Shown piece by piece: positions 3,535 to 25,254 of a stretch of 64,000 nt of DNA (position 1 is the stretch's first letter; the number at the start of each line of letters is the position of its first letter). The stretch is from an uncultured Gammaproteobacteria bacterium (GTDB lineage: Bacteria; Patescibacteriota; Microgenomatia; Levybacterales; UBA12049), in the NCBI GenBank assembly GCA_964653195.1, contig CAZZCX010000004.1:173-64172 (forward strand), given 5' to 3'. Both the position numbers and the translations under genes were made by a program. The notes beneath the pieces were generated by a model that was not told the origin of the DNA, searched no databases, and worked only from the letters and a program-made list of their open reading frames with translations.

Positions 3535-3960
3535 CTACACCAAACTCAATACCAAAGCCATTGAAATAAGTGACGCAAGTTGATATCCAGTATTGATAGC
3601 CATTAGCTTCCAATTTTTTCTTCCAAATATTTCACCTGTCAGCTGAACCGGCATCATAAACCCCAACCACATCCAAAAAGCCGTAGTAAGACCTGTCGCA
3701 AGTCTACTGAAACCAAATGAATTCACGGATAATGTCATTACATGTGAAAGGGTATACGCAGTTATCAAAGATACCAAAAAACTTAATCCGTATAGTTTGC
3801 CCATTTCTTTTTGAGCTTTTTTCAATGATTCTGTGGTATATCCAGATAGCTTCATCCAGGGTTTCCCAAGAATAAGTGGACTATAATACAAAAAACCTAC
3901 TATCATTGAAACTATTCCAGAAAGTAAAATTGCAAAATAGTTAATTTCAAAATTCATCAA
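3535..3960 (-). CDS. Small integral membrane protein, DUF1761-like
   Basis: 141 aa with 4 predicted TM segments. N-terminal 'YYSPLILGKPWMKLSG' resembles the DUF1761 signature. Confidence 0.4.
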   Translation of the reverse strand: MMNFEINYFAILLSGIVSMIVGFLYYSPLILGKPWMKLSGYTTESLKKAQKEMGKLYGLSFLVSLITAYTLSHVMTLSVNSFGFSRLATGLTTAFWMWLGFMMPVQLTGEIFGRKNWKLMAINTGYQLASLISMALVLSLV

Positions 3961-4101
3961 AATTCACCTCCTCTCAATAATTAATTTATATTTAATTCTT
4001 AGCTATTGGAAAAACGATTATATATTTTATTTATTATTTAATAAATAATGAAGAGTTACAATAGCGTAAAGTGATCGGATTTTGTATACTTATGGGGCGT
4101 T

Positions 4102-5535: not shown

Positions 5536-7258
5536 AATACTCTTTCAGCATTCTCGTTGCGGTGAATTCATTTAAAATCAGCTCCCGTGCGTTTTTCATA
5601 TTCTCAAGCCATGCCCCAGGAATACCTTCTCTATTCTTGAAATAATATTCAGGAATAATATTATGCTCAAGAATCTCCATCAGGCTATCGGTAATTCTAT
5701 TACTATCAAGTATCCAGCCTATCTTATAAAGCTCTACTTCCGCTACCCATCCGTCTTTCGTGGTACAGGGCAATACTCCATTTAGACATGCTTTCATACC
5801 GCTTGTACCGCAAGCTTCAAAGCCGACAATAGGTGTATTGAGCCATACGTCTGCTCCACTTGTCATTATTTTCGCAAGATTGATATTGTAATCAGTAAGA
5901 TAAGTAATATATTCTCCCAATTCAGACTCCAGAAGTAATCTTATATCATTAAGCATTCCGGCACCTTCACTATCACTTTCATGGGCTGAGCCAGCTAGTA
6001 CTATACGCACAGGGCGTCTTGAATCCTGAACAAGTTTAAGTAGTTTTTCTTTATTCTGAAATAACGCCAAAGGTCTTTTATAGGGAACTATTCGTCTACC
6101 CCAACCCAACAATAAGTGATTCTCATCCCAAACTTTTCCTGTCTTCTCCTGAATAATATTCAAAAGAGTCCTTTTATTCTCCTGATGCCGCGTCCATAAA
6201 TTAATTACATTTTGATTATCAAAATTATATTTATCTATTAAAGCCATTTCCGAATTCTTAACTCTTAATTCTGAATTATGAATTCCTACTCTATCCCATG
6301 TATCTAAATGTATTCCATTAGTTACTGAAATCATAGGATGGTCTGGCCAAATTTCTTCAGCTTTTTTGGCATGGAGCTTACTTACAGCATTTATTCTTGA
6401 CGCCATGCGCATAGATAGTATAGTCATCGAAAAGATACTTGAATCCTTTACAAGTCCCAATGGAATTAATTCATTGACAGGTACTTGAAGTTGTGCTGAG
6501 TAATCTGAAAGTAGAGCTGAAACCATGTCATTATTGAAGGTATCATTTCCTGCTGCCAAAAGAGTATGGTTCGTAAAGACAATATGTCGTCTCGCACGGT
6601 CTAGCTCATCGTTATATTTTCCTTTGTACTCATTCATTTCATGATTTGCCACTTCAAATGCCAGAAGACCTGAATGGCCTTCATTCAGATGATATACACT
6701 TGGGTGAATCTTGAGAATTTCAAGCAATCTTAATCCGGCAATTCCCAATACAATTTGCTGCTTAAAGCGGGTCTCCTTATTTCCGACATATAGCCTGTCA
6801 TTTATACCACGGTCAAGCGGATCGTTTTCATCAATATCCGTATCCAGTAAAAATACTCTTACTGTTTTAATTTGCTTTTCGAAGGCTCTTACTTTCAATT
6901 GTCTTCCCTGCATAGGAATAGATATAATTACGGGCTGTTTATTTAAATCGACTACCGGTTTAAATCCAAAATCGGGAGGTGCAGATTTAGGCGGATGTTT
7001 AAGAAGTGTAGCGTCATTTACCAACTCATGATGAAAATACCCTTCTTCATAAAACATACCTATAGCGACCAAAGGAATTCCCTGATCCGCTGCTTCAAGA
7101 ATTGTATCTGCAGCTAAAACTCCTAGTCCGCCAGCATAGAGTGGGGAATTATTAATTAGTGCAAACTCTGCGCAGAAATATGCTATAGGGCGAATCTTCA
7201 GAAACTCATATTCTTTAGATTTTCTGAAGTCATCAAACCAATTCTCGTGCTGTTGCAT
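5456..7258 (-). CDS. glgP: Alpha-glucan (glycogen/maltodextrin) phosphorylase, GT35 short form
   Basis: N-terminal 'AYFCAEFALINNSPLYAGGLGVLAADTILEAADQGIPLVAIGMFY' is diagnostic of the GT35 phosphorylase family. Its 3' end overlaps malQ convergently by 80 nt. Confidence 0.8.
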   Translation of the reverse strand: MQQHENWFDDFRKSKEYEFLKIRPIAYFCAEFALINNSPLYAGGLGVLAADTILEAADQGIPLVAIGMFYEEGYFHHELVNDATLLKHPPKSAPPDFGFKPVVDLNKQPVIISIPMQGRQLKVRAFEKQIKTVRVFLLDTDIDENDPLDRGINDRLYVGNKETRFKQQIVLGIAGLRLLEILKIHPSVYHLNEGHSGLLAFEVANHEMNEYKGKYNDELDRARRHIVFTNHTLLAAGNDTFNNDMVSALLSDYSAQLQVPVNELIPLGLVKDSSIFSMTILSMRMASRINAVSKLHAKKAEEIWPDHPMISVTNGIHLDTWDRVGIHNSELRVKNSEMALIDKYNFDNQNVINLWTRHQENKRTLLNIIQEKTGKVWDENHLLLGWGRRIVPYKRPLALFQNKEKLLKLVQDSRRPVRIVLAGSAHESDSEGAGMLNDIRLLLESELGEYITYLTDYNINLAKIMTSGADVWLNTPIVGFEACGTSGMKACLNGVLPCTTKDGWVAEVELYKIGWILDSNRITDSLMEILEHNIIPEYYFKNREGIPGAWLENMKNARELILNEFTATRMLKEYFTQMYLPVLTELFETQLRQDDLSNPQ

Positions 7259-22335: not shown

Positions 22336-23583
22336 TTATTTTTGATTAGCCAATTTCATTTGTAAGGTATAAATTTCAGTAAAACCAGCACTAGCATTTA
22401 CATTGAATGCATATCCCTCAGAGTTATTAAATGATGTCTGAGGTAATCCATATGGTGATTTCATCGCTAATATATCAACTTTCCCTTTAAATAACTTAAC
22501 AATAACTTCACCAGTCACCTTTTCATTAACTTTCTCATTAAAAACATTTATTGCCTGCATAGCTGGATCGAGCCACATTGCTCCATAACAAAGATAACCC
22601 CATTTGATGTCCATAATCTCCTTAATCTCATTAAGTACCCTGGTATTTACATATTTTTCCAATGCTTTATGAGCTTCAATAATCACATGAGCAGCAGGTA
22701 ATTCGTAGACTCCACCATTTTTTAGACCGACAAGTCTGTCTTCAAACATAGAGACAATACCTACACCATGATTACCGGCAATATGATTAAGTGCAATAAT
22801 AAGTTGTGATAGGATCATCTCTTGACCATTTATTGCATGTGGTATACCTTTTTTAAATGATAAGTTTACTAACTCCGGTTTATCGGGTGCTTTCTCGGGT
22901 AATGTATAGGTTTTTAAGAACTTTTCAAACTGAGGAATTTGTTCAGGCTCCTCTATTTCTCCCCCTTCCCATGTCATACCCCACATGTTGTCGTCAACTG
23001 AATATGGAAAATCAATTGAAGCAGGTACGGGTATACCATGTTTTTGAGCATACATTATTTCCTCTTCTCTATCCATGTTCCACTCCCTCACTGGTGCAAT
23101 AATTTTTATTTGTGGTTCATGAGTCAAAATGTATCCCTCTAACCTCACCTGGTCATTTCCTTTACCGGTACATCCATGCGCTATACAATCAGCTCCTGTC
23201 TTCTTCGCCATCTCTACTGCTTTTTTCGCAATAACTGCCCTGCCTATAGGTGTAGACAAATGGTAATCACCCTGATATCTGGCGTTTGCCAGTATACCCT
23301 TTGAGAGATATTCTTCAGCAAATTCATTTTTAACATCCAAGGTAATTGCTTTCGCAGCTCCGAAACTTAATGCTTTATTTTGAATTACTTTTAAATCGTC
23401 ATGTTGTTGCCCCAAATCAAGTGTTAATGTTATAACTTCAGCTTTATAATGATCCAGTATCCATTTAAGCATTACTGATGTATCTAAACCTCCTGAATAA
23501 AGAAGTAACACTTTCTTAATATCACCCTTTTTTGCTTCATACGATGCTACCTTAATATATTTTGATTTATTCATTTTTATCAC
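22336..23583 (-). CDS. argG: Argininosuccinate synthase
   Basis: PP-loop 'VLLLYSGGLDTSVMLKWI', 415 aa; overlaps argH by 17 nt. Confidence 0.9.
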   Translation of the reverse strand: MIKMNKSKYIKVASYEAKKGDIKKVLLLYSGGLDTSVMLKWILDHYKAEVITLTLDLGQQHDDLKVIQNKALSFGAAKAITLDVKNEFAEEYLSKGILANARYQGDYHLSTPIGRAVIAKKAVEMAKKTGADCIAHGCTGKGNDQVRLEGYILTHEPQIKIIAPVREWNMDREEEIMYAQKHGIPVPASIDFPYSVDDNMWGMTWEGGEIEEPEQIPQFEKFLKTYTLPEKAPDKPELVNLSFKKGIPHAINGQEMILSQLIIALNHIAGNHGVGIVSMFEDRLVGLKNGGVYELPAAHVIIEAHKALEKYVNTRVLNEIKEIMDIKWGYLCYGAMWLDPAMQAINVFNEKVNEKVTGEVIVKLFKGKVDILAMKSPYGLPQTSFNNSEGYAFNVNASAGFTEIYTLQMKLANQK

Positions 23584-24931
23584 CCCCTTTCACTAATGTT
23601 TTTATAGTAAATTTATACTTTTTATGTTCATACTTATAATCATTCATTTCTTTCTTTATTAGATCAGAATATATTTCTAGCCCTAAACACCCAGTTCCGC
23701 CAATATGTTCAGATTGTTTAAGGACATTACTAATAGTTATTGAATTTACTTTAGGAGAATTTGAGCTTACTATTTGATACGCCTCCCTGAATGACATTCC
23801 ATTTTTTACAAGATCTATAGCTTTATGTGTTGCAAATAACTCAGGCGTTAACGCATTTTTAAGTTTGACTTTATTTGGAGTTATATTTGAAATCAATATC
23901 TTCGCTACCTTTATGCTATCCTGACTAACTTCTAGACTAACCATAAACGGTTTTTTGCTGTCCTGTAAATCCCTGTTGTAACCAGATATTAAGTTGCTTG
24001 AGAGACTAAGAATTTGAATATAATTCCCTGCGGTTATATGAACTTTACTTCTTAATAACTCAGCAATATCAACATTATTTTTCTGAGGCATAATACTGCT
24101 TCCGGAACAAAGCTTTTTTGCTATTTTGAAATAATCAAATTCTGAAGTTGTAAAAAGTAACACATCAGTAGCGAATTTGTTTATATCCAGTAAAATATTG
24201 TTTAGCGCGGATAGAATAATAGCTTCTATCTTTCCTCTTGAGTTTTGACAATATAATGAATTTAGTTGTAATTTACTAAAGCCAAGTAGCTCGCTAACAT
24301 ATTCCCGATCAAGTGGCAAAGGTACTCCGTAGCCCGCAGCAGACCCGAGTGGTGATTTATCGTTTAATGAATATGATACTTTTAAAACATTAAGGTCATC
24401 AAAAAACGCTTCAATAAAAGCTCCAGCCCACATACCGACTGATGAAGGCATAGCTTTTTGAGTATGAGTATAACCAGGTATAACCTGAAATTCATATTTT
24501 TTTGCAAATACTAGAAAACTCTCGATAAGCAAAAGAAGGTTTTTCCAAATATATAGCAACTTTTCTTTAGAGAAAAGTCTCATTGCAGTAAGAACCTGAT
24601 CATTCCGTGATCTGCCTGTATGTACTTTCTTGCCGACATCACCATATTTGACTATTAAAAAATTCTCAATTTTGGTGTGTATGTCTTCATCTCCCTGTTC
24701 TAATATAAAGTTATTTATTTTTATAAGATAAAGAATTTCAGCAAAGCCAGATAGAAGCTTACTTTGCTCTTGTTTCTGTAGGATTCCAATTTTTGTCAAC
24801 ATTCTCACATGAGCAATCGAACCATACACATCGTATATAGCGAGGTATTGATCCAGCAAAAGATCATCCTTCGTTTCAAAAGATTCAATAAATGAGTCAA
24901 GTTCCCAATTTTTTTGCCAAAGCTTTTTCAT
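23567..24931 (-). CDS. argH: Argininosuccinate lyase
   Basis: Fumarate-lyase signature 'GSSIMPQKNN' and 'TGRSRNDQV'. Start placed at the ATG of 'MKKLWQK'. The 13 upstream codons of the ORF track (TTG start) are the terminator hairpin and U-tract of the leader. Confidence 0.85.
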   Translation of the reverse strand: MKKLWQKNWELDSFIESFETKDDLLLDQYLAIYDVYGSIAHVRMLTKIGILQKQEQSKLLSGFAEILYLIKINNFILEQGDEDIHTKIENFLIVKYGDVGKKVHTGRSRNDQVLTAMRLFSKEKLLYIWKNLLLLIESFLVFAKKYEFQVIPGYTHTQKAMPSSVGMWAGAFIEAFFDDLNVLKVSYSLNDKSPLGSAAGYGVPLPLDREYVSELLGFSKLQLNSLYCQNSRGKIEAIILSALNNILLDINKFATDVLLFTTSEFDYFKIAKKLCSGSSIMPQKNNVDIAELLRSKVHITAGNYIQILSLSSNLISGYNRDLQDSKKPFMVSLEVSQDSIKVAKILISNITPNKVKLKNALTPELFATHKAIDLVKNGMSFREAYQIVSSNSPKVNSITISNVLKQSEHIGGTGCLGLEIYSDLIKKEMNDYKYEHKKYKFTIKTLVKGGDKNE

Positions 24932-25220
24932 AGTTTTTCCACTAAAAAACCCGTCTCTGAAAATAACCAAAAACAGTTATTTCCAAGGACGGGATTGCAC
25001 CGTGGTACCACCTTGCTTTCATAAGCCACAAAAAATCCACCTTACGGTGGAACAAACAGAAATTGTAGCTAATGCTTATTATCTGCGCTCCGTTTCCGAC
25101 ACGCATTGTCTTATTTTTACGGTTGACTTCCGTCGTAGTTATTCCTGAAATTTACTTCAGGATTTCTTCTACGCAGCTTGTCTACTGCGGTAGACTCAAA
25201 CGCATTTATTAAATTGTTAT
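24932..25220 (-). promoter_or_regulatory. T-box riboswitch-like leader of argH-argG
   Basis: Antiterminator reads 5'-AAGG[UGGUACC]ACGG-ugcaauc-CCGU-CCUU on the minus strand (+25001-25015 core), 15/19 to the T-box consensus AAUUAGGGUGGNACCGCGG. A mutually exclusive terminator (CCCGUC..GACGGG + UUUUUU, +24945-24994) ends 13 nt before the argH ATG. A stem-III-like hairpin lies just upstream. Confidence 0.65.
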
Positions 25221-25226
25221 AAATAA

Positions 25227-25254
25227 TTATATCAAAAATGTAAAACTTGTCAAT
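25227..25254 (-). promoter_or_regulatory. Consensus sigma70-type promoter (TTGACA, 16-nt spacer, TATAAT) for the arg leader
   Basis: Minus strand reads TTGACAagttttacatttttgaTATAAT, starting 4 nt after the secA stop codon. Confidence 0.6.

Follow-up and report, generated by a model that had tools for sequence, protein, structure and literature searches.

A putative arginine-specific T-box leader with an ultrashort Stem I and an intrinsic terminator upstream of argH-argG in a Microgenomates-type bacterium

Introduction

What controls argH and argG in the 64,000-nt stretch of DNA analysed here (the window), where both genes follow secA across a 328-nt gap? A first-pass annotation, made from sequence alone, had claimed that argH-argG is controlled by a T-box-like leader in this gap, equipped with a promoter of its own, and had listed five elements on the minus strand: a consensus promoter, a region of stem-loops, a hairpin resembling Stem III, a T-box antiterminator and a mutually exclusive terminator. 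All five are present and the claim held, by comparative evidence, with its regulatory output remaining inferred, but three properties of the leader had been missed: a drastically truncated Stem I, a terminator-like hairpin within Stem III and an extra conserved hairpin. We conclude that the gap is very probably an Arg-specific T-box that controls argH-argG by transcription attenuation, although tRNA binding and the regulatory outcome are inferred.

The secA-argH locus

The gene order on the minus strand, confirmed with NCBIfam models, is serS (29588-28284), secA (28028-25260), the 328-nt gap, argH and argG. The T-box element as a whole (25253-24944, minus strand) comprises a promoter and a leader of ca. 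260 nt, with the following features, listed together with the genes downstream:

25226..25253, minus strand: sigma-70-type promoter, TTGACA-16 nt-TATAAT with an extended -10 TG (12/12 consensus match)
25176..25203, minus strand: Stem I base (GC/GC helix, GA-type K-turn-like motif) and ultrashort Stem I hairpin (covariation)
25187..25189, minus strand: specifier CGC (Arg codon), bases 1-3 of the tetraloop, followed by the purine A 25186 (the loop triplet tracks the gene)
25134..25173, minus strand: Stem II (covariation and Rfam alignment to the model Stem II)
25108..25132, minus strand: Stem IIA/B pseudoknot (both helices supported by covariation)
25084..25105, minus strand: extra conserved hairpin UGCGUGUCG-GAAA-CGGAGCGCA (conservation and covariation)
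25020..25074, minus strand: Stem III, outer helix (25074-25064 paired with 25031-25020) around an inner hairpin (covariation and Rfam Stem III alignment)
25030..25051, minus strand: inner hairpin UCCACC-GUAA-GGUGGA (25051..25036) plus U6 (terminator-like, dG -10.3 kcal/mol)
24985..25014, minus strand: T-box antiterminator AAGG[UGGUACC]ACGG...CCGUCCUU (canonical geometry)
24944..24993, minus strand: intrinsic terminator, 6 + 13 bp (24993..24950), then U6 (24949-24944) (dG -22.4 kcal/mol)
22336..24931, minus strand: argH and argG, overlapping, the genes inferred to be regulated
24931-23567, minus strand: argH, argininosuccinate lyase (TIGR00838, 305.7 bits)
23583-22336, minus strand: argG, argininosuccinate synthase (NF001770, 454.4 bits)

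The perfect promoter claimed by the first-pass annotation was found, starting 6 nt and not 4 nt past the secA stop codon (TAG 25262-25260). Its -35/-10 consensus occurs only once in the 64 kb, with 0.09 occurrences expected by chance, comparable promoters lie upstream of homologous leaders, and only about 16 AU-rich nucleotides separate it from Stem I. The claimed GC enrichment of the gap held but is modest (0.40-0.43 versus 0.32-0.36 in the flanks, in a window of about 35% GC). The stem-loop region also held, since the 294-nt leader is structured when its folding is compared with that of shuffles (z = -5.2). The N-terminal extension MVIFRDGFFSGKT of argH had been dismissed as an artefact, and rightly so: the caller used TTG 24970, whereas the orthologues start MKKLWQKN.

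The start of the argG ORF (GTG 23583, or ATG 23574 three codons on) overlaps the argH stop codon (23569-23567), an arrangement compatible with co-transcription and perhaps with coupled translation. A motif ACAAKTTAAYA (25217-25207, minus strand), situated between the -10 box and the Stem I base, recurs in many homologous leaders and might be either a start-site region or a leader element.

Detection with Rfam and previous descriptions

No match was obtained in the window with any of the 4227 families of Rfam 15 at gathering thresholds. In a permissive search, the full T-box model RF00230 (positions 1-219) aligned to 25209..24982 with an E-value of 1e-5 when the region is scored alone and of 0.0013 across the entire window, yet its 33.1 bits are far below the curated gathering score of 93. 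The low score is due to the truncation of Stem I, which has 17 nt in place of 86 model positions, and to two long insertions after the pseudoknot. This was the single such match in the window, and no other Rfam 15 family fits the leader. Likewise, RF00230 at its gathering score gave no T-box match in 16 related loci, where the only matches were two tRNA genes (L002). Motif searches gave a single instance in the window; permissive Rfam and motif searches revealed no T-box-like leader before any other gene of the 64 kb, including serS. As a side observation, argH-argG is the sole T-box target in the window, though aminoacyl-tRNA synthetase genes are the classic targets.

The open-access full text searched contained no relevant description of a T-box in CPR, Patescibacteria or Microgenomates, and a 2024 overview of Patescibacteria names riboswitches only as prospective tools (PMC11665869). 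The subscription literature was outside the scope of the search, so an earlier description cannot be excluded. As far as the open-access literature goes, a transcriptional T-box with a short Stem I is likely to be an undescribed variant within the T-box kind.

Homologous leaders and covariation

Relatives of this ArgH among GTDB species genomes come nearly all from CPR/Patescibacteria of the Microgenomates group (Levy-, Davies-, Woese-, Gottesman- and Roizmanbacteria), which places the DNA analysed here in a CPR bacterium of the same kind. No database record was identical to the ArgH sequence. A T-box core lies upstream of argH in 17 of 22 CPR-like argH loci. A metagenome collection searched with the pattern GTGTCGGNAACGGAG-N55-85-GGTGGNAC, which combines a class-specific block with the T-box core, yielded at least 120 stretches; five of them were obvious false positives in GC-rich DNA, and the rest were complete leaders with promoters and terminators. 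This pattern demanded the extra, GNRA-capped hairpin, whose frequency among all CPR T-boxes cannot therefore be read from the set.

Covariation was evaluated in a structure-blind MAFFT alignment of 37 leaders of the window type, onto which helices were mapped from window positions. The proposed helices pair in 90.5% of the cells, versus 33-45% when the partners are slid by 1-3 columns, and double changes occur at 32 of 45 pairs, a figure reached by none of 500 shuffles. This supports Stem I, Stem II, both pseudoknot helices (IIA and IIB), outer Stem III, the inner hairpin and, in the extra hairpin, the lower stem. Every helix is kept, with compensatory changes, in over 100 homologues from genomes and metagenomes of Microgenomates-type CPR bacteria.

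Two other kinds of argH leader were observed. A second Arg T-box architecture, from other CPR genomes (L005, L006, L013 and L021), has a canonical K-turn (GAUGA/GGAGC) and a specifier CGA-G or AGA-G. It is without the IIA/B pseudoknot and the GNRA hairpin, but its T-box core, too, follows a hairpin with a U-run. In three Microgenomates genomes, L011 (~3560-3724), L014 (~3800-4000) and L018 (~100-284), the region before argH contains a promoter and a leader ending in a strong GC hairpin and U-run but no T-box core; these could represent a different attenuator for argH.

Structure of the leader

Stem I is reduced to the hairpin GUCUAC-CGCA-GUAGAC (25195-25180), that is, 6 bp and a 4-nt terminal loop, whose first three bases are the Arg codon CGC. 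It contains no distal platform, specifier internal loop, distal AG bulge or distal loop for the tRNA elbow. Across the 37 aligned leaders its six pairs all show compensatory changes, with 98.6% of the cells paired and the closing pair being CG in 19 and UA in 17, and the CGCA loop is invariant in 34 of the 37 while the stem sequence varies; A10, A28, G29 and C30, in the Stem I region, are invariant or nearly so. An alternative CGCAG/CUGCG pairing, which appears in the single-sequence minimum free energy fold and would bury the specifier, was rejected for having no double-change pair and a paired fraction (74.6%) equal to the shuffle mean. One difficulty for the T-box reading is that we cannot explain how a loop of 4 nt, with a covarying closing pair, could show three bases to an anticodon.

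Stem II is made of a proximal helix (CGUAG/CUACG), in which 5/5 pairs covary and 99.5% of the cells are paired, and a distal helix (UCCUGAA/UUCAGGA), separated by a purine-rich internal loop (AAGAAA / AUAA, with the purine string GAAGAAA) that is S-turn-like by sequence, its geometry being inferred; A41 and A67 are invariant in the aligned leaders. It is followed by the pseudoknot, with IIA formed by CGG/CCG, including an F-box-like CCGUAA, and IIB by a loop GUC that pairs with a downstream GAC. IIB shows double changes at 2/3 pairs and, examined by eye across loci, takes the forms GUC/GAC, GCA/UGC, GGCUG/CAGCC, UCUG/CAGA, AGUG/CACU and GGA/UCC.

The extra hairpin is capped by a GNRA tetraloop and contains the internal motif U.G / G.A / U.G. 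Its block GUGUCGGNAACGGAG is conserved across leaders and occurs once in the window, and a pair of its lower stem is CG in 26, AU in 6 and UA in 5 leaders. It has no counterpart in the Rfam T-box consensus and appears as an insertion when the leader is aligned to the model. The idea that this hairpin stands in for the lost Stem I platform was rejected, because it is also present in Tyr leaders with a long canonical Stem I.

The outer helix of Stem III shows double changes at 9/9 pairs, with 60-78% pairing in a stretch where the MAFFT alignment is ragged. Inside it lies the hairpin that the first-pass annotation had likened to Stem III (CCACC-GUAA-GGUGG), which was confirmed and found to be followed by U6; it is located some 20 nt ahead of the T-box core. 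Its helix is 95.8% paired, with double changes at four pairs, in the 37-leader alignment, and a hairpin plus U-run is found 20-30 nt before GGUGG in 95 of 112 leaders, of all Stem I classes. A role as terminator of secA was considered and rejected: the hairpin is downstream of the promoter and inside Stem III, and it is kept despite unrelated upstream genes. As a separate observation, the 3' arm of this hairpin, GGUGGA (25041-25036), repeats the GGUGG of the core (25012-25008), such that the 5' arm CCACC could pair with the T-box core. The variable position of the arm is A-U in 21 of the 37 aligned leaders, consistent with a CCACC/GGUGG arm, and the rest covary away; the pairing with the core may be a coincidence.

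Antiterminator and terminator

The antiterminator, whose 15/19 match to the T-box consensus was verified by direct comparison, consists of helix A1 (AAGG/CCUU), a 7-nt bulge UGGUACC (25010-25004) and helix A2 (ACGG/CCGU). A structure-guided scan recovered this canonical geometry in 110 of 113 non-redundant leaders, with variation in pair type in both A1 (AU 79 / GC 26) and A2 (GC 83 / AU 25 and CG 48 / GC 61). The 5' strand of the terminator overlaps the 3' strand of the antiterminator by 8 nt, so the two structures are mutually exclusive, as had been claimed; an overlapping terminator with a U-run occurs in 108 of the 113 leaders (median dG -26.7 kcal/mol). In the window, the antiterminator alone has a dG of only -3.6 kcal/mol versus the -22.4 kcal/mol of the terminator, from which we infer that termination is the default state. 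The terminator ends 12 nt, and not 13 nt, before the argH ATG (24931), and leaves the ribosome-binding region GGAAAAACU outside the hairpin.

Correspondence of specifier, gene and tRNA

The loop triplet of Stem I changes with the gene downstream. A CGC-A tetraloop, or a 7-nt loop GUCGCGA, precedes argH and argF (ornithine carbamoyltransferase), and CGC is all that the arg leaders with the 7-nt Stem I loop share with the tetraloop class. CGC was found before argH in a metagenome cluster of 11 loci, 10 of which were classified, the 11th having its 5' domain cut by the contig end, and in 13 aligned leaders, 12 from genomes plus that of the window. In other argH leaders, whose Stem I is somewhat longer, the equivalent position is occupied by CGA-G or AGA-G, also Arg codons. 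CCC/CCU loops (UUUCCCG, CAUCCUA and similar) precede proB, proC, proS and the gene for ornithine cyclodeaminase, loop AGGGUUGGAA (UGG) precedes trpS, and UAC is carried by the Tyr leaders, the subgroup with a long canonical Stem I. No cross-assignment of loop triplet and named gene was found among the homologous leaders. Their triplets are those that TBDB gives as usual for each amino acid, with CGC being the commonest of the Arg specifiers (52%) and UAC making up 99% of those for Tyr (PMC7778990). The same database lists Arg T-boxes, and their description as uncommon in the first-pass annotation holds only in part, as a relative statement. In L104, the one tetraloop example that is not Arg, the same hairpin with CCUA lies beside proS, but with a small ORF and a hairpin in between, which makes this a case of adjacency only; it was dropped as a clean proS control because co-transcription across them is not shown.

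A second correspondence links the variable base of the UGGN bulge to the discriminator base of the tRNA. All 14 Pro and all 10 Tyr leaders have U at this position; among Trp leaders 12 have C and 3 have U, and among Arg leaders 47 have U and 8 have C. A tRNA-Trp gene with G73 lies beside a UGGC leader in five loci. The tRNA-Trp of L056, in contrast, has A73 and neighbours a UGGU leader, and tRNA-Arg and tRNA-Tyr genes with A73 are likewise found beside UGGU leaders. The UGGU bulge in the window predicts the discriminator A73. The 64-kb window contains no tRNA genes and its own cognate tRNA-Arg was thus not seen, but in the related locus L084 a gene for tRNA-Arg(GCG), with A73 and an anticodon that is the exact complement of CGC, comes immediately after a CGCA-tetraloop leader. 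The specifier-gene match, the UGGN-discriminator match and the presence of tRNA-Arg(GCG) in these organisms indicate an Arg-specific T-box, although the binding of tRNA itself is inferred.

Proposed mechanism

Transcription would start at the consensus promoter; any read-through from secA would also have to cross this leader, there being no terminator between the two. The nascent RNA is predicted to fold into Stem I, showing CGC-A, followed by Stem II, the IIA/B pseudoknot, the GNRA hairpin and Stem III. A tRNA-Arg would pair with CGC, the simplest candidate being one with the GCG anticodon, as seen in a related organism. If uncharged, its free NCCA end (A73) would pair with UGGU in the bulge and stabilise the weak antiterminator, letting the polymerase enter argH; with charged tRNA, the terminator and its U6 would form and transcription would stop 12 nt before argH. 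By analogy with actinobacterial ileS T-boxes, the Stem II domain may compensate for the missing elbow platform. More speculatively, the inner hairpin of Stem III and its U6 might act as a programmed pause, giving time for tRNA binding before the decision point.

Further points weigh against the T-box reading besides the geometry of the tetraloop: the RF00230 score is below threshold, the distal platform is missing, the non-Arg tetraloop example L104 is a case of adjacency only, the cognate tRNA was not seen in the window and no expression data stand behind the reading, which is inferred from sequence alone.

Alternative explanations

The specifier might lie elsewhere, for example in the internal loop of Stem II (3' side AUAA), leaving the tetraloop hairpin with only a structural or docking role. 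In favor of this, steric constraints make a loop of 4 nt ill suited to pairing with an anticodon loop, and the internal loop of the second helix, which ends in AUA-A, superficially resembles a truncated specifier loop. Nevertheless, the 3' side of this internal loop is AUUA/AUAA in the Arg leaders, which is not an Arg codon, and Rfam places the helix at Stem II, not Stem I. Additionally, the triplet of the terminal loop becomes CCC/CCU ahead of proline genes and UGG ahead of tryptophan genes, CGC is all that the two classes of arg leaders share, and CGCA remains invariant while Stem I covaries. We thus consider it very unlikely that the specifier is outside the tetraloop.

The leader could instead act on translation by sequestering the Shine-Dalgarno sequence, as the actinobacterial short-Stem-I T-boxes do, and all ultrashort-Stem-I T-boxes described so far are indeed translational (PMC7583486; PMC7778990). 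However, the alternative helix in the window is a 19-bp hairpin followed by U6 that leaves the ribosome-binding region free, a hairpin with a U-run is kept in 108 of 113 homologues, and the terminator of L084 runs directly into a tRNA gene, where translational control would be meaningless. Control at the level of translation is therefore very improbable.

That the leader is a decayed relic or a chance likeness, with argH-argG expressed from the promoter and by secA read-through, would agree with the sub-threshold RF00230 score and the lack of any family at gathering score in the window, but is all but excluded by the compensatory changes with which more than 100 leaders keep the helices and the antiterminator/terminator overlap, a covariation that refutes a relic, as well as by the folding z-score of -5.2 and the window-wide E-value of 1.3e-3.

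Comparison with known T-boxes

According to a 2020 review, transcriptional T-boxes generally need the distal platform of Stem I, and an ultrashort Stem I is typical of translational T-boxes, mostly from Actinobacteria (PMC7583486); TBDB makes the same split into class I and class II (PMC7778990). The argH leader, which we interpret as an Arg-specific transcriptional T-box, shares with class I (RF00230; B. subtilis tyrS/glyQS, Arg T-boxes in TBDB) the specifier followed by a purine, the purine-rich, S-turn-like loop of Stem II, the IIA/B pseudoknot and its F-box-like CCGUAA, Stem III, a T-box sequence of 14 nt containing the UGGN bulge, the mutually exclusive intrinsic terminator and the control of an amino-acid gene, the latter being inferred here. 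It differs in having a Stem I of 6 bp plus a tetraloop, with neither specifier internal loop nor elbow platform, and in adding the GNRA hairpin after the pseudoknot and the terminator-like hairpin with its U-run in Stem III.

The truncated Stem I and the lack of an elbow platform are shared with class II (actinobacterial ileS; Sherwood, Grundy & Henkin 2015, per PMC7583486), as are Stem II and the IIA/B pseudoknot, without which the tRNA presumably could not bind. The ultrashort form of Sherwood 2015 is reported to carry its specifier in the terminal loop. Unlike class II, the argH leader uses an intrinsic terminator instead of a Shine-Dalgarno sequestrator, the leaders belong to CPR/Patescibacteria and not to Actinobacteria, they correspond to Arg, Pro, Trp and others and not to Ile, their loop goes down to 4 nt and they contain additional conserved hairpins. 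The argH leader is, in sum, a hybrid of a class-II-like Stem I and a class-I terminator.

A bolder reading, towards which we lean by a narrow margin, is that these leaders form a large, uncatalogued T-box class, widespread in Microgenomates-type CPR, in which a specifier in the terminal loop, even one of only 4 nt on a 6-bp Stem I, suffices for co-transcriptional tRNA sensing. This class would have two lineage-specific modules, the GNRA hairpin after the pseudoknot and the terminator-like hairpin plus U-run ca. 20-30 nt before the core, plausibly a pause site, and a wide regulon that takes in arg, pro, trp and tyr genes, many proteins that belong to no known family and even tRNA genes of the matching amino acid. 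If so, the need for a Stem I elbow platform in transcriptional T-boxes would be overturned: the leaders would be a natural counter-example to the rule of a long Stem I for fast tRNA capture, with the hairpin plus U-run as a candidate for kinetic compensation, and a specifier in a tetraloop would pose a structural puzzle for codon-anticodon recognition by RNA. Gene regulation in CPR/Patescibacteria is almost unknown, and tRNA-sensing riboswitches would then be widely used there and missed by Rfam-based annotation. The specifier could also serve as a functional label, since CGC, UGG and UAC leaders would tie uncharacterised CPR proteins to arginine, tryptophan and tyrosine, and such compact leaders (~260 nt, minimal Stem I) are possible parts for engineered tRNA-responsive switches.

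Leaders upstream of unassigned proteins and tRNA genes

Several clusters of proteins recur behind CGC, UGG or UAC leaders and have no NCBIfam or Pfam match (L034:1861-3213, L043:496-1776, L047:9592-10704, L108:1160-2236, L124:704-2089, L065:4255-5922 and L046:2784-3128). Through their specifiers, these clusters might be linked to arginine, tryptophan or tyrosine metabolism, an assignment that is provisional.

In seven loci, the leader directly precedes, in the same orientation, tRNA genes whose amino acid matches its own; to our knowledge, T-box control of tRNA genes has not been reported in the literature. The coordinates of these leaders are:

L084, 5844-6107, minus strand: leader, followed by the tRNA at 5768-5843, minus strand
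L083, 1281-1609: leader before a tRNA gene
L042, 236-457: leader before a tRNA gene
L067, 5301-5547: leader before a tRNA gene
L090, 5016-5258: leader before a tRNA gene
L068, 129-363: leader before a tRNA gene
L056, 3581-3815: leader before a tRNA gene

Arg leaders precede tRNA-Arg(GCG), the pair tRNA-Arg(UCU) and tRNA-Arg(UCG), and tRNA-Arg(UCU); a Tyr leader precedes tRNA-Tyr(GUA) in three loci, and a Trp leader precedes tRNA-Trp. Six of these loci have the tRNA start 0-22 nt after the U-run of the terminator; the exception is L056, without a detected U-run, where the tRNA starts about 70 nt past the T-box core.
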